Positions 11,799 through 40,334 of a stretch of 43,172 nucleotides of DNA are shown piece by piece. The notes beneath the pieces were generated by a model. That model was not told where the DNA came from. It made no database searches and saw only the letters and a list, made by a program, of their open reading frames with translations. Source of the DNA: a virus (taxonomy: Duplodnaviria; Heunggongvirae; Uroviricota; Caudoviricetes). The stretch is from IMG/VR virus record IMGVR_UViG_2675903609_000006, one strand, 5' to 3'. Within the stretch, counting starts at the first letter, position 1, and each line of letters begins with the position of its first letter. The translations under genes and the position numbers were made by a program.

Positions 11799-13706
11799 TT
11801 ATCGTGGAAAACGAAAAGGGGAATACCCCACATCGTGCGTGATTTTCATCAGGGGATCGGCTTTGCCCGGTACATCAATTATCTTCATACCTGGCGGAGC
11901 ATTCTCGAACGTGACTTTCAGCTCGCTGTGCTGTGTCATGGAAGAAGATGGATTCAACAGCGGAACATTGGGTTTGTACTGGCTCAGGCTGGCCTGATAC
12001 TGCTCGTACTCTTTACGATCAAAAAAAGGCGTCCAGTCTGAAGCCAGAAACAGCCCTTTATTATCCAGCCAGTTAACCGTATCTTCAGGAACAACACTTT
12101 CCAGAGTATCTTTAACCGGCTCATACATCAGGGTTCCCAAAAAACCATATACCCCGGCCTTCCCGATAAAGCCGCGGCCTTTCCCCATCAATCCCGTTTC
12201 TGCCGATACCTTCCCCAGCGTACGCATCTCTCTGGTCACTGCGGTAATGGATTTGGTAACGTCAGCAACCCATTTGGTTGCCATAAACAGGGCAATCGCT
12301 TTCAGAACAGTTTCCCATCCCCCCATCACCTGCGCCGTTTCATCCACCACGTGCCAGACTTTTTTTATGACAGGGCCTACGGTTTCCCAATTATCAATAA
12401 TGAGGTAAGCGCCACCAACCAGAAGAGCAATCAGCCCCTTAGCAGGCGTCATATTCATCACACCGCCGAGAACTTTCATGATTCTGGACAAAGAGCCTGC
12501 AGCGGCCCCCACTGTCAGTAAAGCCAGACCGATTTTAGCAATGGTCTTAACGAGCTCCGGGTTTTCACGGACAAACGTTCTCACTTCCTCAAGGAGCGGT
12601 TTTACCGCTTCAAGACCATCATTAACCTCAGGAAGAAACGTTTCCCCCAGCGTGGAAGAAATGGCATCAAGTTGATTTTGCAGAAGTAAAAGCTGGTTTT
12701 CCGTCGTCGCTGCCCTCGAAGCATATTCCTTCTGCATCGAACTGCCATACTGCTGGGAATCCGCAACCCGCCTGAAGTTGGTACGCAACAAATCAAGGTT
12801 AGTCAGCAGAGGTGCTATCGCGCCCAGAGACTCTTTCCCGAACAGGGCATTCAGCACAGCTGCCTGTTTTTCTTTAGGCACTTTAGCCATCGCATCCAGT
12901 ACAGACAGCATGGTGCCCCGGGCATCTTTCTGCATATCAGCAGCTAATTTCTTCGGATTGATCCGCAGAAAACGCAATGCCTGTGTCTGCGATTTTGTCG
13001 CAGAATTTCCCGCGGTCAGGGAAAGCATGAAGTTCTTGACCCCTGTGGCGGCAATTTCTGACTCCACGCCCATCCCGGCAATGGTTGCCCCCATTGCCGC
13101 GATTTCGCCGGAAGCCACACCTGCAACACCACCTAAAGGACCAATACGCGTAACAATATCGGAGATTTTCTTCGCGTTCGCTGGGCCGGTATTACCAAGG
13201 TAGTTGATTTTGTCAGCCAGCCCGGCCACTTCATCCTGCGTCATATTAAACGCAGTACGCCACTGGGCCATCATCTGCCCGGACTCTTCAGCCGTGGTAT
13301 CAAAGGCCACGCCCATCTTCACCGCATCAGTGGCAAACTGCATCAGTTCATCACGTGCAATCCCGGCCTGACCGCCAGCCGCCACAATTTCCGCGATCCC
13401 GTCTGCAGACATGGGAAGCTCAGTAGACAAAGCGCGTACCTGCTCCGTCATGGCCTTAAACGCATCCGGCGTATCCAGACCGTCCACCACTTTGCGGACA
13501 TCAGCCATCTTCGATTCAAGGGTGATGGCTGATTTTACAGGGAGTGCCAGTGCCCCCATTATTGCAGTACCCGCCCCGGCAGCGCCCAGAGCAAGGCTGG
13601 AGACTTCTTTCTGAAATCCCTTAAGCTGACGCTGCATACCTTTAAGCGGGCCGGACAGCCTGTCAACAGCGGTGATGATGGCTTTCAGCTGAAAATTATC
13701 AGCCAT
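11799..13706 (-). CDS. Tail tape measure protein
   Basis: 635 aa, Ala/Gly-rich helical protein at the tape-measure position. Confidence 0.8.
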   Translation of the reverse strand: MADNFQLKAIITAVDRLSGPLKGMQRQLKGFQKEVSSLALGAAGAGTAIMGALALPVKSAITLESKMADVRKVVDGLDTPDAFKAMTEQVRALSTELPMSADGIAEIVAAGGQAGIARDELMQFATDAVKMGVAFDTTAEESGQMMAQWRTAFNMTQDEVAGLADKINYLGNTGPANAKKISDIVTRIGPLGGVAGVASGEIAAMGATIAGMGVESEIAATGVKNFMLSLTAGNSATKSQTQALRFLRINPKKLAADMQKDARGTMLSVLDAMAKVPKEKQAAVLNALFGKESLGAIAPLLTNLDLLRTNFRRVADSQQYGSSMQKEYASRAATTENQLLLLQNQLDAISSTLGETFLPEVNDGLEAVKPLLEEVRTFVRENPELVKTIAKIGLALLTVGAAAGSLSRIMKVLGGVMNMTPAKGLIALLVGGAYLIIDNWETVGPVIKKVWHVVDETAQVMGGWETVLKAIALFMATKWVADVTKSITAVTREMRTLGKVSAETGLMGKGRGFIGKAGVYGFLGTLMYEPVKDTLESVVPEDTVNWLDNKGLFLASDWTPFFDRKEYEQYQASLSQYKPNVPLLNPSSSMTQHSELKVTFENAPPGMKIIDVPGKADPLMKITHDVGYSPFRFPR

Positions 13707-23177: not shown

Positions 23178-23677
23178 GATTCGATAATTTTCAGAAACGG
23201 GTTAGTGGCTTTCTTCTGCCCCGCCAGGCCAATCAGACGCTGGCGGCTGCTGGGGTCGAGTCCGAGCATTGCCCCCGTACTGCTCATCTCGGACTCCTGT
23301 TCTTTTTTGGCGGTCAGCTCCGGATTTTTGACCATGCCGCCCATTGCACCGGTGATGGTGTTGCCCTGTCTGGCAATATTTTTCACGGCACGTCGCCAGA
23401 ACTCATAGGCCACGCACCACCGCTCAAGCACTGCGAGGTCAGTCACGCACAGCAGGCCCTGACCGCAGAGTTCTTTGGTTGTCAGTTGCCACATGATCGT
23501 GGCGAGAGGGAGCTCTTCTTCAGCGAACCACTCCGGTGGCTCAACACCTTTGATGGGCGTAAAAACGGGTTCATCTTTGTTCAGGGCTCGCTTGCCGGGG
23601 TTTCCGGCCAGCGCCTTGCGCGCCGTTGGCTTGGGGCGACGCCCGGAACGCCCCGCCGTTCCAGCCATATGCGGCAC
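23174..23677 (-). CDS. Terminase small subunit (P27 family)
   Basis: 167 aa directly upstream of the large terminase with a 4-nt overlap. Confidence 0.75.
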
Positions 23678-23793
23678 TCCTGGTTAAATTTCATTTTTCG
23701 CGGGTATAAAAAAACGATGGGGCGGGCAGTCCGGAAGACGTCAGGTCACAGGGATTTGACCCGCCCCTCCCCTCTGGCAGTGGGAACTGGTTC
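23678..23793. other. Candidate cos / packaging initiation region
   Basis: Non-coding gap between HNH and the small terminase with a GC-rich inverted repeat GGGGCGGGC ... GCCCGCCCC; placement by analogy with HK97-like phages. Confidence 0.25.
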
Positions 23794-24144
23794 TTACTTC
23801 AGCCATTCACGGGCCGTCTTCGCCTTATGACACGGCCAACACAGGCTCTGTAGATTACTGTCGGCATCAGTGCCGCCACGCGCTTTAGGGATGATGTGGT
23901 CAACGGTTTTCGCCTCACGCACCACACCAGCACGCAGACATAACTGACACAGGCCTTTGTCACGCTTCAGGACACGCGCGCGGATACAGTCCCACTTCGA
24001 ACCGTAGCCGCGCTGATGACGGGACTGGCCTGGCTTGTATTGCTTCCAGCCTTCGCTTTTGTGGCTTTCGCAATAGCCTGACGAGTCAGTGGTGGTATGG
24101 GAGCAGCCGCGAACACGGCAGGCTTTTGGGGTTCGTGGGGGCAT
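23794..24144 (-). CDS. HNH endonuclease (terminase-associated)
   Basis: 116 aa with Cys-rich zinc finger and HNH motif (DHIIP...N...LCWPCH). Confidence 0.85.
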   Translation of the reverse strand: MPPRTPKACRVRGCSHTTTDSSGYCESHKSEGWKQYKPGQSRHQRGYGSKWDCIRARVLKRDKGLCQLCLRAGVVREAKTVDHIIPKARGGTDADSNLQSLCWPCHKAKTAREWLK

Positions 24145-24238
24145 ATGTACTCCAATGAAGAAACCAGCGAAATAGCTGCCTTCATTCGTAGTAAACCTTT
24201 TTCATCAACGCAGTAATGGATTCTTTGAAGAGTCGCAA

Positions 24239-24318
24239 TCAATACGACTCACTAATGGGGAGGCATGTCCAACGCGTTGGACGAGTTGCCTACTTGATTT
24301 AGGTGACACTTTAGAAGG
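24239..24318 (+). promoter_or_regulatory. T7-promoter-like (24239-24263) and SP6-promoter-like (24297-24318) motifs flanking a CCAACGCGTTGG palindrome; function unproven
   Basis: AATACGACTCACTA (24241-24254) is an exact 14-mer of the T7 promoter core. ATTTAGGTGACACTTTAGAAG matches the SP6 promoter 18-mer at 17 of 18 positions. Confidence 0.5.
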
Positions 24319-24365
24319 ACAGAATGCCTTCCTCACTCAAATAACATCAATTAAGGAGGTTCAAC

Positions 24366-24488
24366 ATGCTTCGTTCCAAAAGTCAGTTGACTGTAATTAT
24401 TACTACGTCACCTTATGCCGAAGACCTTTTCCGCTTCACTTTGAGCCTGATTCACTTCTACCTGACCGGCTCGCCTCTATCCTTCTGA
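24366..24488 (+). CDS. Small ORF (40 aa) behind a consensus Shine-Dalgarno, antisense to the late operon
   Basis: TAAGGAGGT (24352-24360) sits 5 nt before the ATG; the ORF overlaps the 3' end of the o-spanin gene on the other strand. Confidence 0.25.
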   Translation: MLRSKSQLTVIITTSPYAEDLFRFTLSLIHFYLTGSPLSF

Positions 24489-24711
24489 TCCCCGCTTTAT
24501 CCAGATTGCACTGCCCTAGCGCCGACAACAGACTGACATTCAAATCTAGGCTACCCGCATAAGTCAGCGGTTCAGAAATGGCTGGTTGCGGGGTTTCAGC
24601 GGTCAGACTCGCCGGTAACGGTATAGCCGGAACTGGCACGTAAACTGTCCGCGAACTTTCGCAACCGGTCAGCAGCGGCAGCAGGCACAGGGCGTACAGC
24701 ACAATCATCAT
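24436..24711 (-). CDS. o-spanin (Rz1-like outer-membrane lipoprotein)
   Basis: Alternate frame overlapping the Rz 3' end; lipobox LLTGC followed by a Pro-rich segment. Confidence 0.5.
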   Translation of the reverse strand: MMIVLYALCLLPLLTGCESSRTVYVPVPAIPLPASLTAETPQPAISEPLTYAGSLDLNVSLLSALGQCNLDKAGIRRIEASRSGRSESGSK

Positions 24712-24988
24712 CCGCAACAGCCACTTTGATATCAGCCTGGGTTCTCTGTGACTCCAGTGCGATCTGTTGTTTTGCATGCTGGTTAGCCTCCAGAACTGTA
24801 TTGACGATTTGTAGTGATTGCAGGACGTTATTGGTAATGGCTGTTGCTGATTCAGCATTTCGTACAGCCTCATCAGCACGTTTCTTTTCGTGCTGATATT
24901 TGCTGTAGTAGTGGTTAGCAGACCAGATGAAAGAACCGATGACAGTAAAGAAGAATGCAGAGATAGCCAGCTTATAGCTCAACTTCAT
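24596..24988 (-). CDS. i-spanin (Rz-like)
   Basis: 130 aa with N-terminal TM helix and coiled-coil periplasmic domain, immediately after the endolysin. Confidence 0.7.
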   Translation of the reverse strand: MKLSYKLAISAFFFTVIGSFIWSANHYYSKYQHEKKRADEAVRNAESATAITNNVLQSLQIVNTVLEANQHAKQQIALESQRTQADIKVAVADDDCAVRPVPAAAADRLRKFADSLRASSGYTVTGESDR

Positions 24989-25448
24989 TTACCACCCCAC
25001 CAGCCTCTTTAAACCGGGAAATCAGGTCACCGATTTTATGTTCATACTGACCGTAACCTGCACCAGGTAACGACGCCCAGATATTGCTGCAACGATCGAT
25101 AGCCTGACGAATATCGCCGCGATCAATCATCGGTAAAGCGCCACGCTCTTTAATCTGCTGCAATGCCACAGCGTCCTGGCTTTTCGGAGAGAAGTCTTTC
25201 AGGCCAAGCTGCTTGCGATAGGCATCCCACCAACGGGAAAGAAGCTGGTAACGTCCGGCGGCTGTTGATTTGAGTTTTGGGTTTAGCGTGACAAGTTTGC
25301 GAGGGTGATCAGAGTAATCAGTAAACAGTTCGCCGCCAACAATAACATCATAACCGTGGTTACGTGTCGGTTGTCGCCCGTTATCCGTTCCTTCTGACCA
25401 TGCCACCATATCGAGGAAAGCTATACGCTGGGAATTTAGTACCTGCAT
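24972..25448 (-). CDS. R: Endolysin (lambda R-type lytic transglycosylase)
   Basis: 158 aa matching recalled lambda R over most of its length (FLDM.AWSEGTDNGRQ.TRNHGYDVIVGGELFTDYSDHPRKLVTLNPKLKST...). Confidence 0.9.
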   Translation of the reverse strand: MQVLNSQRIAFLDMVAWSEGTDNGRQPTRNHGYDVIVGGELFTDYSDHPRKLVTLNPKLKSTAAGRYQLLSRWWDAYRKQLGLKDFSPKSQDAVALQQIKERGALPMIDRGDIRQAIDRCSNIWASLPGAGYGQYEHKIGDLISRFKEAGGVVNEVEL

Positions 25449-25451
25449 AAA

Positions 25452-25778
25452 TTACTCCTTAGAGCCACCAAACTTATTACCGATTACTCGCATTGCAGCC
25501 CCACGAATAGCATCAACACCGATCAGCCCCACACCACCACCAATGGCAACAGATAGTGATTTAGGCCATCCGACATACTCAAGAGCGGATGCAAAAGTCA
25601 GCGTCAGAGCGCCACAGAGTAGAATTTCGAGTGTTTTTCGCTTCCAGCCGCCACCACCGCCAAAATAGGCAATACGTAAACCAACCATAACAATCGACAT
25701 AATCACTGCGCCCAGCGGTGTGTCTCCACGCCACCAGCTCTGGAACAACTCCAGCCAAGTATTTGGGTTATGAGGCAT
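25452..25778 (-). CDS. Holin (putative, three TM segments)
   Basis: 108 aa, three hydrophobic helices, immediately upstream of the endolysin. Confidence 0.6.
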   Translation of the reverse strand: MPHNPNTWLELFQSWWRGDTPLGAVIMSIVMVGLRIAYFGGGGGWKRKTLEILLCGALTLTFASALEYVGWPKSLSVAIGGGVGLIGVDAIRGAAMRVIGNKFGGSKE

Positions 25779-25921
25779 TTGTAGTTATCTCTCACCTCGC
25801 CAATACAGGAGGTGCCAATTGAGGGAATACCACGTACCGCACATCAGAAGCGGAAACGTCAAAGAAGCCGAGTCAATGGATAAATGTGGGATAGACCAGG
25901 ACCAACGAATCCCCAGCCCAA

Positions 25922-25952
25922 GAAACGACAAAACCCGCTCGACGGCGGGTTT
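25922..25952 (-). terminator. tR'-like terminator upstream of the lysis cassette
   Basis: Hairpin AAACCCGC-TCGACG-GCGGGTTT followed on the minus strand by a T-rich tract. Confidence 0.45.
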
Positions 25953-26042
25953 AAGCTGTGTGGCGAAGTAACCACTCTTAACACAGTAATCTAGAAAATG
26001 CGGACCGCGTTAGTGATTTTTTCAACTTTTTGATTTATCTTA

Positions 26043-26070
26043 TTGAACACAAGAAACCACTGCCTATAAA
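26043..26070 (+). promoter_or_regulatory. Sigma70-like promoter for the Q-lysis cargo module
   Basis: TTGAAC (26043-26048), 16-nt spacer, TATAAA (26065-26070); an AAGGA ribosome-binding site precedes the ATG at 26140. Confidence 0.4.
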
Positions 26071-26139
26071 TCATATCAACCCAAACCATAAAAACCAAAA
26101 AATCAAATGATTACATTAACTAGATAAGGAACAAAGTTA

Positions 26140-27225
26140 ATGAAAGAAAGCCGCAGCAAGGTCATTCAATATAAACGTGCAGTCATCCCTAATTGCACAG
26201 CAACGCTTCAACAGATCATAGAATCTATAATTTCTGAAAATGGCGCAGCCTATAAAGTTAGCGCAAGAAGAGAACAGATTAACCCCTCCGATAGCAATAG
26301 TGGATTTAGAGTGGTTAACCGCAGCAGCACTTTCAAGACAGTGTTATTCGGGCAACTTATTTTGTTTGAACAAGGTAAAAGCCAAACACTTATGACAATC
26401 GCTGATGATGTCAATTATTATGACATCAATGCTATAACATCGAAGCAAATTAAATTAGCCGAAGACGAAAAAATAAGTGAAGCTGAAAAACAAAAAATAA
26501 CACGAGAATTTATTGATTCAATACTTTACTTTGGGATTCGTGATAATCATGTGATGATCGTCCAATCACCGGCTCTAAGGACTAAAGACATAGAAAGCCA
26601 TCTTAATTGGTTAATCCATTCATTTAGCACTATTTTTAATGGTGACGACTTCCTTGTACTTCAAGATAAACCAACTGAAGACACCATAAAAAAAATGCAT
26701 GAAAGTCCAGTCAAGAAAATAAATTTCGGCAGTATCCCAATCAAAAATTCTGATTCTGAAGATGTAGTTAAAATAAATAATATAAGTAACACAAACGACC
26801 TCCCCACAACAATAAAAGAACAGGTCGAAAAAGTTAAGAAAATAAAATTCATGCCAACTGGTAAAGGTGGCGATATTATAAAAGCTGCTTTTGGCGAAGC
26901 ATGGTTTAATAATTTACAACTGGAAGATTCTCTTGATGAATCCAATTTACAAGTTAATCTAGAAATAACCTATTTCCGCAAGACAAACAAAGATGGTCAA
27001 CGTGTACTCGATACTTTAGCAACTTCACTCAGAAATATAGACGATGAAGATATTAGTATAAACCTTCAAGGTGGTGGCATAATTAAAGGCAGTGATTTAA
27101 AACTATCCGGTAAAGTAAACGTCCAATATAACAATGGACTTATTGATGAAAATGATTTATATTTACAAATGCACAAATGGCTGACTTCAAAGGTTCAAAC
27201 TGGAGAAGTAAAAGTTAAAAACTAG
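26140..27225 (+). CDS. Hypothetical soluble protein (361 aa), first gene of the Q-lysis cargo module
   Basis: Long AT-rich ORF on the strand opposite to flanking phage genes; Lys/Asn/Asp/Glu-rich; no family recognised. Confidence 0.7.
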   Translation: MKESRSKVIQYKRAVIPNCTATLQQIIESIISENGAAYKVSARREQINPSDSNSGFRVVNRSSTFKTVLFGQLILFEQGKSQTLMTIADDVNYYDINAITSKQIKLAEDEKISEAEKQKITREFIDSILYFGIRDNHVMIVQSPALRTKDIESHLNWLIHSFSTIFNGDDFLVLQDKPTEDTIKKMHESPVKKINFGSIPIKNSDSEDVVKINNISNTNDLPTTIKEQVEKVKKIKFMPTGKGGDIIKAAFGEAWFNNLQLEDSLDESNLQVNLEITYFRKTNKDGQRVLDTLATSLRNIDDEDISINLQGGGIIKGSDLKLSGKVNVQYNNGLIDENDLYLQMHKWLTSKVQTGEVKVKN

Positions 27226-27563
27226 AACCAACAGGAGGCGGAAATGAGCTTCTTTAAATTTATTATAAGATTCTTATCCGCCTTCGCTTTTGGGTTTGCA
27301 ATATTTTACTTTGCATCTAGAAAAATTGACTTAAGTGGCATATCTACTCCATGGTCATTAATAACCTTATTAGCATTCCCTTTCAGTTATTGTATCGCAG
27401 CCTTTTTTAAAGTTTCTGAAGCCGACGAAAACACATCACTATCAGATAATGAACTAAGAAGATTACGACCGATAATTGATGCAAAAAAAAGACATCTTGG
27501 ATTTCTTATCTTTTTTTATCTTATTGCTGCTTTTTCAGGAGCAATTGGGGTAATGACTCCAAC

Positions 27564-28067
27564 TTATTGATAGTGTTTTATGTTCAGATAATGCCCGATG
27601 ACTTTGTCATGCAGCTCCACCGATTTTGAGAACGACAGCGACTTCCGTCCCAGCCGTGCCAGGTGCTGCCTCAGATTTAGGTTATGCCGCTCAATTCGCT
27701 GCGTATATCGCTTGCTGATTACGTGCAGCTTTCCCTTCAGGCGGGATTCATACAGCGGCCAGCCATCCGTCATCCATATCACCACGTCAAAGGGTGACAG
27801 CAGGCTCATAAGACGCCCCAGCGTCGCCATAGTGCGTTCACCGAATACGTGCGCAACAACCGTCTTCCGGAGACTGTCATACGCGTAAAACAGCCAGCGC
27901 TGGCGCGATTTAGCCCCGACATAGCCCCACTGTTCGTCCATTTCCGCGCAGACGATGACGTCACTGCCCGGCTGTATGCGCGAGGTTACCGACTGCGGCC
28001 TGAGTTTTTTAAGTGACGTAAAATCGTGTTGAGGCCAACGCCCATAATGCGGGCTGTTGCCCGGCAT
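27564..28067 (-). CDS. insB: IS1 transposase InsB
   Basis: 167-aa product recognised as IS1 InsB. Confidence 0.9.
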
Positions 28068-34289: not shown

Positions 34290-34964
34290 ATGAAAACAAT
34301 CCATGACATCCGGCGGTCTAACGCCAGAAAACTGAGAGATGGTGTTGGCGGGAATTCTTCCTTTGCCACTATGATTGATCGCGAGCCAACCCAGACCAGC
34401 AGGTTTATGGGAGATGGTGCTACTAAAAATATCGGTGACAGCATGGCACGACACATCGAAAAATGTTTCGACCTGCCTGTTGGATGGCTCGATCAAGAAC
34501 ACCAGACAACGAACATCACAAAAAAACCTGATGTTTCAATCACTAATAAACAAATCACATTAGTCCCTGTCATATCATGGGTACAGGCCGGAGCATGGAA
34601 AGAAGTTGGATATTCTGAGGTTGATTTGAGCACAGCAGAAACGTATCCCTGCCCTGTACCCTGTGGGGAAATGACTTATATCTTGCGGGTGATAGGTGAT
34701 TCAATGATTGATGAGTACCGCCCGGGAGACATGATTTTTGTCGATCCTGAAGTACCAGCCTGCCACGGTGACGACGTTATTGCATTGATGCACGATACAG
34801 GTGAAACCACCTTCAAAAGGTTGATAGAAGATGGGACACAGCGTTATCTCAAAGCGTTAAACCCAAACTGGCCTGAGCCTTACATTAAGATCAACGGTAA
34901 TTGCTCTATAATTGGAACTGTGATTTTCTCAGGAAAACCAAGAAGATACAAAATCAAAGCCTAA
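34290..34964 (+). CDS. cI: CI-type repressor with S24 (LexA-like) autopeptidase domain
   Basis: C-terminal domain with VIGDSM nucleophile and downstream Lys (FKRL), similar to recalled P22 C2. Confidence 0.85.
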   Translation: MKTIHDIRRSNARKLRDGVGGNSSFATMIDREPTQTSRFMGDGATKNIGDSMARHIEKCFDLPVGWLDQEHQTTNITKKPDVSITNKQITLVPVISWVQAGAWKEVGYSEVDLSTAETYPCPVPCGEMTYILRVIGDSMIDEYRPGDMIFVDPEVPACHGDDVIALMHDTGETTFKRLIEDGTQRYLKALNPNWPEPYIKINGNCSIIGTVIFSGKPRRYKIKA

Positions 34965-38854: not shown

Positions 38855-39204
38855 TGGAGCCATACAGCCTCACACTCGATGAGGCCTGTCATTTTCTCAA
38901 GATATCCAGACCGACTGCCATTAACTGGATACGCACAGGGCGTCTTCAGGCAACACGCAAAGATCCCACTAAGAATAAATCTCCTTACCTCACAACACGA
39001 CAAGCCTGCATTGCGGCTCTTCAGTCTCCGCTGCATACTGTCCAGGTGAGCGCGGGTGATGGCATAACAGAGGAAAGAAAATGTCACTCTTCCGCAGAGG
39101 TGAAATATGGTACGCCAGTTTCACATTGCCGAACGGTAAAAGATTTAAACAGTCTCTTGGAACAAAGGACAAAAGGCAGGCGACAGAACTCCATGACAAG
39201 CTAA
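38854..39204 (+). CDS. Excisionase-like HTH protein (3' end uncertain)
   Basis: ATG at 38854 preceded by AAGAGG; N-terminal HTH-like segment; frame overlaps the int start by ~120 nt. Confidence 0.4.
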
Positions 39205-40244
39205 AGGCTGAAGCATGGCGGGTCAGCAAACTTGGTGAAATACCTGATATAACGTTCGAGGAAGCGTGTGTCAGGTGGCTTGAAGAGAAAGCACATAAAA
39301 AATCACTGGACGATGACAAAAGCCGGATCGGATTCTGGCTTCAACATTTCGCAGGAATACAACTAAGAGACATTACTGAATCAAAAATTTATTCAGCAAT
39401 GCAGAAAATGACGAACCGGCGTCATGAGGAAAACTGGAAACTCAGGGCAGAATCATGCAGAAAAAAAGGGAAACCTGTTCCAGAATACACGCCAAAACCA
39501 GCGTCCGTTGCAACGAAGGCTACGCATCTTTCATTTATAAAGGCCCTACTAAGAGCCGCAGAGCGTGAATGGAAAATGCTGGATAAGGCACCAATTATTA
39601 AAGTGCCTCAACCAAAGAATAAACGGATCCGCTGGCTGGAGCCCCATGAAGCACAAAGGCTGATTGATGAATGTCCGGAGCCATTAAAGTCTGTTGTTGA
39701 ATTTGCACTGGCAACAGGCTTAAGACGCTCGAACATCATCAACCTTGAATGGCAACAAATAGATATGCAGCGCCGGGTGGCATGGATAAACCCGGAAGAG
39801 AGTAAATCAAACCGCGCAATTGGCGTTGCGCTGAATGATACTGCATGTCGCGTATTGAAAAAACAAATCGGGAATCATCACCGTTGGGTATTTGTGTACA
39901 AGGAAAGCTGTACCAAACCAGACGGAACGAAAGCGCCAACAGTAAGGAAGATGCGGTATGACGCAAACACAGCCTGGAAAGCGGCGCTGAGACGGGCTGG
40001 TATTGATGATTTCAGATTTCACGACTTGAGACACACCTGGGCAAGTTGGCTGGTTCAAGCCGGAGTCCCGTTGTCAGTTTTACAGGAAATGGGAGGCTGG
40101 GAGTCTATCGAAATGGTTCGTCGATATGCTCACCTTGCACCTAATCACCTTACCGAACACGCACGGCAAATAGACTCGATCCTGAACCCATCGGTCCCAA
40201 ATTTGTCCCAGTCAAAAAATAAGGAAGGTACTAATGATGTGTAA
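39081..40244 (+). CDS. int: Tyrosine integrase (site-specific recombinase)
   Basis: 387 aa with catalytic motifs ([24 protein letters not shown]...RYAH); ends 15 nt before the tRNA. Confidence 0.9.
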
Positions 40245-40258
40245 CTTATTGATTTTAA

Positions 40259-40304
40259 TGGTGCCGATAATAGGAGTCGAACCTACGACCTTCGCATTAC
40301 GAAT
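40259..40304. repeat. Proximal attachment-site core (3' 46 nt of the tRNA)
   Basis: Identical to 433-478. Confidence 0.8.
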
Positions 40305-40334
40305 GCGCTGCTCTACCAACTGAGCTATATCGGC
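40259..40334 (-). tRNA. thrW: tRNA-Thr (anticodon CGT) - integration target
   Basis: Reverse complement reads GCCGATATAGCTCAGTTGGTAGAGCAGCGCATTCGTAATGCGAAGGTCGTAGGTTCGACTCCTATTATCGGCACCA (76 nt, CCA end at 40259). Confidence 0.9.

Follow-up and report, generated by a model that had tools for sequence, protein, structure and literature searches.

What known bacterial defence systems detect is mostly a protein of the phage, a feature of nucleic acids or the arrest of host processes. Activation of a resident element by an infecting phage is familiar from satellites such as P4, which responds to Ogr/delta of phage P2, and from the phage-inducible chromosomal islands (PICIs), whose genes are switched on by the transcription factors of the infecting helper. 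Closer to the locus considered here, Chen and Schneider reportedly used information-theory scans in 2006 to find tandem clusters of T7-group promoters in prophage-like islands of enteropathogens and a review cites them for a prophage-linked island of Escherichia coli and Shigella. The element analysed here lies in a 43,172-nucleotide stretch of tailed-phage DNA (IMG/VR record IMGVR_UViG_2675903609_000006), which we call the window throughout. It is a moron-like insert of about 330 bp (24145-24470, + strand), located between the start codon of an HNH endonuclease gene and the 3′ end of the Rz1/LysC spanin gene, and it consists, in this order, of a T7-group promoter (P1), a covarying hairpin, an SP6/K1-5-class (Molineuxvirinae) promoter (P2), a consensus Shine-Dalgarno sequence and an open reading frame (ORF) of 40 amino acids, hereafter ORF40. 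We assign a probability of about 0.55 to the reading, drawn from sequence comparisons, that this cassette is a mobile moron which senses superinfecting virulent podophages of the Autographiviridae through their RNA polymerase and uses that polymerase to drive a harmful micro-protein.

The cassette of E. coli and Shigella is very probably the same kind of object as the regions of Chen and Schneider; its two promoters belong to one prophage and are read in the same direction, with 57 nt between the starts of P1 and P2. Later than that work are the Berlinvirus identity of P1, the KPN7-class promoters found in Klebsiella, the covarying hairpin and the selection acting on ORF40. Both the SfIV genome (2013) and the definition of the KP34 promoter (2019) are of later date.

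The distribution of the cassette was established by comparing the 456 bases around the gap between the HNH and Rz1 genes with other genomes. Shigella phage SfIV, obtained by induction of a wild-type S. flexneri 4av strain (PMC3851460), has these bases at 100% identity, and so does E. coli CFSAN061762. Of 5,426 complete E. coli genomes, 630 have a copy of the cassette (11.6%, about one in nine), mostly at 80-90% identity (around 85%). In addition, three independent seeds recovered about 99 copies from the viral contigs of IMG/VR, which collapse into 54 haplotypes. The differences among copies follow natural promoter classes and not vectors. The cassette is natural, widely distributed DNA.

P1 (CAATACGACTCACTAATGGGGAG, positions -17 to +6) occupies 24240-24262 of the + strand, with a predicted start at G24257. 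It includes, at 24241-24254, the exact 14-nt core of the T7 promoter, AATACGACTCACTA, to which the original prediction had drawn attention; this core is the sole match in the window even with two mismatches allowed. For scoring, weight matrices were built from each phage's own promoters (T7, Berlinvirus 285P and SP6). The site at 24240 reaches 26.2 bits with the T7 matrix (T7's own promoters, 26.0-39.2) and 33.4 bits with the 285P matrix (285P's own promoters, 23.1-37.7), while the runner-up site across the 43-kb window stays at about 14 bits with the T7, 285P and SP6 matrices. The first 20 nt of P1 (CAATACGACTCACTAATGGG), the specificity region (-12 to -8) included, are those of the 285P promoter at 6076 (CAATACGACTCACTAATGGGAAA), and the commonest E. 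coli variant of P1 equals, over 19-21 nt, the 285P promoter at 12823 (CAATACAACTCACTAATGGGACA); both variants, CAATACGACTCACTAATGGG and CAATACAACTCACTAATGG(G), are authentic 285P promoters. A scan with TAATACNACTCACTAATGG retrieved T7-like contigs of 39-40 kb with repeated copies of the P1 form, and these contigs belong with Erwinia phage FE44 and Escherichia phage 285P in the genus Berlinvirus. The C at -17 and the AT at -2/-1, previously taken for point changes in a T7 promoter, turn out to be the normal form of Berlinvirus-class promoters. Each departure from the T7 consensus is also present in T7 itself: C(-17) in phi1.1A, A(-2) in phi1.5, phi1.6 and phi4.3, and T(-1) in phi2.5. Among the 54 haplotypes only 4 of the 23 columns of P1 vary, with a nucleotide diversity (pi) of 0.039. 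A K1F-type promoter was considered and rejected, K1F promoters (CTAAACTATCACTATAGG) being unlike P1. Judged on these matches, P1 is a Berlinvirus-class promoter of the T7 group and not a mutated T7 promoter.

P2 (ATTTAGGTGACACTTTAGAAGGA, positions -17 to +6) is found at 24297-24319 on the + strand and has its predicted start at G24314. The SP6-like motif had been placed correctly at 24297-24317, but its score of 17 matches out of 18 has to be replaced by 20 out of 21, since ATTTAGGTGACACTTTAGAAG differs from the SP6 promoter 21-mer by a single mismatch. None of 100 shuffled controls matched this 21-mer with up to three mismatches, and the SP6 matrix gives 31.4 bits for the site at 24297, the promoters of SP6 itself ranging from 22.2 to 35.9. 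From -26 to +9, 32 of 34 bases match one promoter of the Salmonella Zindervirus UAB_Phi78, and the similarity ends on either side of the patch. The confinement of this match to the patch suggests that recombination with infecting phages was the source of the promoter patches. For the transcript that begins at 24314, ViennaRNA predicts a 5′-terminal stem-loop (GAAGG...CCUUC) at 24314-24331 of the + strand.

The variation within P2 is concentrated at the positions that set polymerase specificity. The triplet at -12 to -10 is the most variable spot of the whole region (pi 0.277, versus 0.007-0.09 in the rest of P2). In the window the triplet is GGT, which is SP6-class; with CTG in its place the promoter reads ATTTACTGGACACTATAGAAGG, of which phage K1-5 has three copies, or five when the comparison is made through +4. 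ATG and CTT were also encountered among the haplotypes. In the 54 haplotypes, pi amounts to 0.11-0.17 in the spacer, in the hairpin and in the part of the ORF that encodes the N-terminal half. Taking P1 and P2 together, the columns of the promoter cores are less variable than their flanks (9/41 versus 84/186; Fisher p = 0.008), and both promoters remain within authentic score ranges in 54 of 54 haplotypes.

Separately from this, we observed that ATTTAGGTGACACTTTAGGAG, identical over 18 nt to the P2 of the window and different from the SP6 promoter at -3 only, occurs in many environmental podophage contigs (L279, L288, L290, L341 and about 40 other IMG/VR loci), one of which was checked and is related to HTVC011P-type Pelagibacter phages. 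The CACTTTAG form, with T at -3, is likewise a repeated motif in pelagiphage-like podophage contigs. Such near-identity of marine and enteric podophage promoters was unexpected. The scan of viral contigs for the -3T form, which returned mostly marine pelagiphage-like sequences, was set aside as irrelevant to enteric hosts. As to the stretch CCTCACTC on the 3′ side of P2, it was judged by eye only and offered no credible T3- or K1F-type promoter.

The design recurs in Klebsiella with other promoters. Homologous Klebsiella cassettes were found in Kp4864-1, Kp4856-1 and seven IMG/VR contigs; they too adjoin the 3′ end of Rz1, and they combine a strong Shine-Dalgarno sequence with ORFs of 37-40 amino acids ending in ...PLSF. 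Their T7/K11-like site (variants such as AATTAGGGCCCACTATAGAGAC) matches 135 Klebsiella podophage records at the promoters of these phages. A second site, TTAATAGTGGCGAGTATAGAAC, equals a promoter repeated at least eight times in the Klebsiella phage KPN7 (Molineuxvirinae) and present in 8-11 copies in about 20 related genomes. A third, TAATGTTACACGAGTA, shares 15 of 16 bases with the promoter of the KP34 RNA polymerase, which was defined by rapid amplification of cDNA ends (5′-RACE) and in vitro transcription in 2019 (PMC6834552). In Escherichia and Shigella the promoter set is Berlinvirus/T7 with SP6/K1-5; in Klebsiella it comprises K11, KPN7-class and KP34 promoters. That the sets track the podophages of each host genus is hard to explain unless recognition by the polymerases of those phages is selected. 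Comparative evidence strongly supports transcription of the cassette by invader polymerases. Tentatively, and with somewhat less than even confidence, we extend this to a modular 'polymerase trap' of the temperate phages of Enterobacteriaceae, in which an array of promoters, copied from the virulent podophages infecting the host genus, would drive a suicide or inhibitor peptide of 37-40 amino acids and the specificity patches would recombine in an arms race with the specificity loops of the podophage polymerases. Promoter recognition would then serve as a form of immune sensing.

An analogue was encountered in an unrelated prophage lineage (L168 9030-9200, L169 near 8900 and L172 near 5338), whose nearest database matches are Yersinia and Erwinia phages. 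A perfect phiOL-type T7 promoter, TAATACAACTCACTATAGG, is followed there by a ribosome-binding site and a membrane-like ORF of 38 amino acids (MINIKIDMNITAAIGIAFWFLGKNPKAIYHLIQYFFPL), directly after Rz/Rz1 and on the opposite strand. The presence of such a unit at the same place and with the same design supports the idea of a general design.

The payload of the cassette begins with the Shine-Dalgarno sequence TAAGGAGGT (24352-24360, + strand), 5 nt upstream of the ATG at 24366; the original prediction was accurate both on this arrangement and on the 40-codon ORF that follows. The Shine-Dalgarno sequence is almost invariant (pi 0.010), also in copies recovered with seeds lying outside it, and the ATG is likewise nearly invariant. 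ORF40 (MLRSKSQLTVIITTSPYAEDLFRFTLSLIHFYLTGSPLSF) extends over 24366-24488 of the + strand, its last 17 codons overlapping the 3′ end of Rz1 on the opposite strand. Its length is 40 codons in all complete copies from E. coli and Shigella (95 collected; the lone exception ends at a contig edge). The N-terminal half is variable, and the C-terminal half (…LFRFTLSLIHFYLTGSPLSF) is conserved, including in Klebsiella. The overlap with Rz1 offers a direct comparison of the two frames, because, in its register, substitutions that are silent in one frame replace an amino acid in the other. Over the last 17 codons, pN/pS (the ratio of replacement to synonymous differences) is about 0-0.35 in the ORF40 frame and at least 1 in the Rz1 frame, in 10 of 10 E. 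coli/Klebsiella pairs. This contrast indicates that ORF40 is the selected reading frame. On these ratios, ORF40 is under purifying selection in its own frame, and the overlapping Rz1 tail evolves without constraint.

The exact ORF40 protein is called 'hypothetical' on 854 contigs, and it has no hit in Pfam, PADLOC, NCBIfam or PHROGs. The Klebsiella payload peptides gave two marginal hits in PHROGs (E = 0.019 and 0.098) and none in Pfam, PADLOC or NCBIfam. In three E. coli phage records (ON470600, ON470607 and ON470621) the cassette region is labelled 'protein of unknown function DUF4347', a label that probably arose as an annotation artefact, since ORF40 matches no Pfam family.

Between the two promoters, at 24264-24285 of the + strand, lies a conserved hairpin with a 9-bp stem and a 4-nt loop. 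It contains the palindrome CCAACGCGTTGG (24269-24280), which the first inspection had rightly recorded at these coordinates. Across the aligned copies, pairing is retained in 93.9% of cells, versus 18-40% when the partner columns are slid, and compensatory changes occur at 3 of the 9 pairs. The intermediates are U-G pairs on the + strand and would be C-A mismatches on the - strand. Such a pattern would suit either an attenuator or a structured RNA element close to where P1 transcripts begin, comparable to that of T7 phi10 mRNA. The same hairpin (CTTGTCCAACACGTTGGACA) is retained in the Klebsiella cassettes. Folded over its full length, the P1 transcript does not stand out (z = -1.35), and the Rfam covariance models gave no match up to E = 1 within 23600-26200. 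As a further observation, most Klebsiella cassettes (L386-L394) have a second hairpin (e.g. CTTGTCTCTTATAAGAGACAAG) about 60-90 nt upstream of their first promoter, which resembles an E. coli variant of the inter-promoter hairpin, CTTGTCTCACACGTGAGACAAG.

If the cassette senses podophages as we propose, the following sequence of events can be envisaged. In the lysogen it would be silent, as expected from the lack of a recognisable host-type (sigma-70-like) promoter in the gap. A phage of the Berlinvirus/T7 class or an SP6-like phage would bring its own single-subunit RNA polymerase into the cell, and this enzyme would recognise P1 (start 24257) and/or P2 (start 24314). The resulting transcripts, provided with a consensus ribosome-binding site, would direct high-level synthesis of ORF40, which would most likely poison the infected cell (abortive infection) or else block the invader, so that the lysogenic clone, and hence the prophage, would be protected. 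The promoter patches would have been exchanged or captured by recombination, each host genus apparently carrying the promoters of its own podophages. We infer that phage polymerases use both promoters in vivo, that ORF40 acts as a toxin or an inhibitor, and that the net effect is defence.

The surroundings of the cassette identify it as an insertion, to judge from the alignments. The late operon runs on the - strand in the order holin, lysin, Rz/Rz1, gap, HNH, cos, terminase. To the left, the HNH endonuclease gene (23794-24144, - strand) is followed by cos near 23736, placed from the genome end in the coordinates of the SfIV record, and by the gene of the small terminase subunit. To the right is the Rz1/LysC o-spanin gene (24436-24777, - strand), annotated in SfIV and with its frame verified by translation, the C-terminal tail of which is encoded by cassette DNA. 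The gap between HNH and spanin genes exists as the original prediction had it; its length from HNH to the Rz1 stop (24436) is 291 nt rather than 290. In an Edwardsiella prophage with an HNH gene 86% identical to that of the window, HNH and Rz1 are only about 85 nt apart and the cassette is absent; homology to the window restarts near 24445-24490. The Rz1 tails differ accordingly in this alignment: the last ~12 residues in the window (24436-24480, - strand) are RIEASRSGRSESGSK, and the translated Edwardsiella tail is about ...IEMRRNALLAAGK. SfII and SfV match the Rz1 part only. The GC content is about 0.47 in the cassette versus 0.56-0.59 in HNH. The element is thus inserted between genes that are adjacent in related phages and shows presence/absence polymorphism, as morons do. 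In the interval 24145-24600, neither a sigma-70-like promoter nor a terminator-like site was found.

We also asked which neighbour the cassette travels with. Nothing similar to the cassette is seen at any of 61 loci anchored on HNH in other species; linkage to HNH was rejected on the basis of its absence beside the HNH homologues in 61 of 61 loci and of the different left neighbour in Klebsiella. The constant neighbour is the 3′ end of Rz1/LysC. On the other side, 3′ of ORF40 on the + strand, iss (serum resistance, a bor homologue) is found in 52 of 78 contexts and Rz1 follows directly in 14 of 78, the window included; the rest have other genes or insertion sequence (IS) elements. Some copies are decayed or truncated. 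The Klebsiella-type locus L389 has a degraded KP34-like promoter and no longer a start codon for the payload (ATG to ATA); in L145, near 6906 on the - strand, unrelated DNA replaces the cassette immediately past +4 of P2; and in L100 P1 is absent. Taken together, these three copies show turnover of the cassette. A single-subunit RNA polymerase gene is absent from the window, in which the longest ORF does not exceed 635 amino acids, and on this ground the prophage is taken to lack such an enzyme.

Apart from the sensing of invader polymerases, only two explanations appear realistic. The cassette could be a hitch-hiking element or a replication origin, whereby podophage machinery would transcribe and possibly replicate the prophage region and the island would spread with the podophage; this view, which is reportedly close to the discussion of 'tandem T7-like promoter' islands by Chen and Schneider, we consider unlikely. 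Its appeal comes from the tandem arrangement of P1 and P2, 57 nt apart, which recalls phi1.1A and phi1.1B at the primary origin of T7, 75 nt apart; from the C at -17 of P1, shared with phi1.1A and with the 285P promoter just upstream of gene 1.1; and from the proximity (<500 bp) of the cos site and terminase genes of the prophage. However, cos, HNH and terminase lie behind the promoters in the sense of transcription, a podophage packaging signal was not seen, and the similarity to lytic phages is limited to promoter patches of about 34 nt. An origin, moreover, would need neither a constant strong ribosome-binding site nor a selected micro-ORF, and T7 degrades host DNA early in infection. According to the other explanation, improbable to a similar or slightly greater degree, the promoters would boost other prophage genes by read-through into lysogeny-sense genes of the + strand, ORF40 being incidental. 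The targets would be iss/bor in most E. coli copies and, in the window, the AT-rich morons at 26140-27570, followed by a cI-like gene and the leftward operon. The finding that iss comes next, in the same orientation as the cassette, in 52 of 78 contexts agrees with this, as does the lack of a terminator close after ORF40, and all sizeable + strand genes downstream in the window (26140-27225, 27244-27570, 34290-34964 and 39081-40244) are in the sense orientation for read-through. Yet the downstream neighbour varies while the ribosome-binding site and ORF40 stay constant, ORF40 is under purifying selection, and in the window the next + strand gene is reached only after 1.4 kb of lysis genes in antisense orientation.

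Two further explanations fare worse. That the patches are neutral scars, i.e., short pieces of podophage DNA recombined in during past co-infections and devoid of function, is in our opinion very unlikely. The 32/34 match of P2 and its flanks to one Zindervirus promoter does go beyond the consensus and speaks for physical capture of phage DNA; but the patches derive from two or three podophage subfamilies, each consists of a promoter only, in one orientation and upstream of a consensus ribosome-binding site, and the architecture recurs in Klebsiella with different, host-matched promoters. The conservation of the promoter cores relative to their flanks, and the occurrence of the cassette in 11.6% of complete E. 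coli genomes, also speak against functionless scars. Finally, the original prediction had listed vector-derived or engineered DNA, an assembly chimera and a natural antisense element as alternatives. The likeness to pGEM/pSP vectors, namely T7- and SP6-like promoters beside an MluI-containing palindrome, is superficial. Both promoters face the same way on one strand, as had been seen from the start, and are not opposed around a polylinker; the supposed mutations are natural promoter forms, and the palindrome belongs to a covarying hairpin. Engineered origin and chimera alike are refuted by the 100% identity to a phage from a wild strain, SfIV, and to CFSAN061762, by the copies in 630 E. coli genomes, mostly diverged, and by the 54 IMG/VR haplotypes; we consider contamination, engineering or misassembly to have practically no chance of being true. 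Identical sequence in independent wild prophages had been named in advance as the mark of a natural conserved element, and SfIV and CFSAN061762, with the many diverged copies, provide it. The third alternative was right but understated, since the promoter array is part of a conserved, mobile cassette that also carries a protein-coding payload and that has host-matched counterparts in Klebsiella prophages.

Several observations weigh against a cassette that senses invader polymerases and arms a toxic peptide. P2 has T at -3 (CTTTAG), a position occupied by A in 11 of 11 SP6 promoters and 10 of 10 K1-5 promoters, and its activity with the SP6 polymerase is uncertain as a consequence; the K1-5-type relatives of the cassette have the canonical A. 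The hairpin between P1 and P2, with a U-rich stretch after it, could attenuate P1 transcripts. A riboswitch-like gating, in which the 5′ ends made from P1 or P2 would free the Shine-Dalgarno sequence in comparison with read-through transcripts, was discarded, the effect being marginal and too small (unpaired probability 0.19-0.20 versus 0.26 in the window, and 0.42 versus 0.50 in the commonest type). The ORF40 family is narrow, with 15 protein clusters, and all those with a named source come from E. coli. No antitoxin, antisense RNA included, and no other safety device was found. Lastly, the ORF40 of the window is weakly hydrophobic, its best 19-residue hydropathy being 0.90, and a role as membrane toxin is unsupported for this form at so low a value. 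For comparison, the corresponding values are about 2.5-2.9 for Hok and TisB, 1.40 for the commonest E. coli form, 1.83 for the Klebsiella homologue and 2.31 for the alternative Klebsiella payload. A membrane-active peptide is plausible for the ORF40 family, as far as hydropathy can tell.

Two other regions of the window deserve mention. Between the lysis cassette and an IS1 copy, at 26140-27570 on the + strand, are two AT-rich genes of 361 and 108 amino acids (SfIV_49 and SfIV_48). Their GC content is 0.32-0.37 versus about 0.5 elsewhere, and they match only PHROGs of unknown function and nothing in Pfam or PADLOC; they are candidate accessory or defence genes expressed in lysogeny. A tRNA-Thr (CGT) gene at 40259-40334 (- strand), directly past the integrase-like ORF 39081-40244, is probably the attachment site of the prophage, in which case the window reaches past the prophage end.

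If the cassette indeed senses podophage polymerases, it would constitute a natural case of virus detection through the virus's own transcription enzyme. It would help to explain the resistance of some E. coli, Shigella and Klebsiella lysogens to therapeutic podophages of the T7, SP6, K1-5 and KP34 types, predict escape mutations in the specificity loop of the polymerase or in the phage promoters, and supply ready-made orthogonal switches triggered by infection. A caution for contamination screens also follows: perfect-looking T7/SP6 promoters are natural in about one in nine complete E. coli genomes. The SfIV genome paper leaves the promoters unmentioned (PMC3851460), and the full-text literature searched yielded no functional study of the cassette. 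In another line of work, Djordjevic and Klaenhammer are said to have placed a lethal gene under a phage phi31 promoter in Lactococcus, as an engineered suicide cassette. To our knowledge, the closest working examples of a phage promoter used as trigger are synthetic, and we know of no natural defence demonstration.

Compared with known systems, the cassette borrows from several without coinciding with any. Like the transcription units of the Autographiviridae (T7 phi10, 285P, SP6, K1-5 and KP34), it has promoters of 23-bp architecture that start at G, an initial transcript rich in purines, a stem-loop predicted at the 5′ end and a strong Shine-Dalgarno sequence; unlike them, it resides in a temperate lambdoid prophage that has no such polymerase, and it mixes promoters of different subfamilies, which no single podophage would need. 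Like the bor moron of lambda and the iss moron of E. coli, it is a small, independent unit that is inserted among conserved late genes, reads antisense to their transcription and shows presence/absence polymorphism, and iss itself adjoins most E. coli copies. Classical morons, on the other hand, have host sigma-70 promoters and are expressed in the lysogen, whereas the cassette has promoters for foreign polymerases only. The logic proposed here resembles that of abortive infection and of the type I toxins Hok and TisB, in that a lethal or inhibitory product would stay silent until a transcription signal specific to the invader appears. The small size of the payload (37-40 amino acids) adds to this likeness, as does its hydrophobicity in Klebsiella copies, the ORF40 of the window being only weakly hydrophobic. 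As in the satellites, finally, a resident element would be activated by the transcription machinery of another phage. The satellites, however, are switched on by activators that act on the host polymerase, and they exploit the helper in order to spread, whereas no packaging or mobilisation functions are linked to the cassette, and the signal to which it would respond is a complete foreign polymerase.

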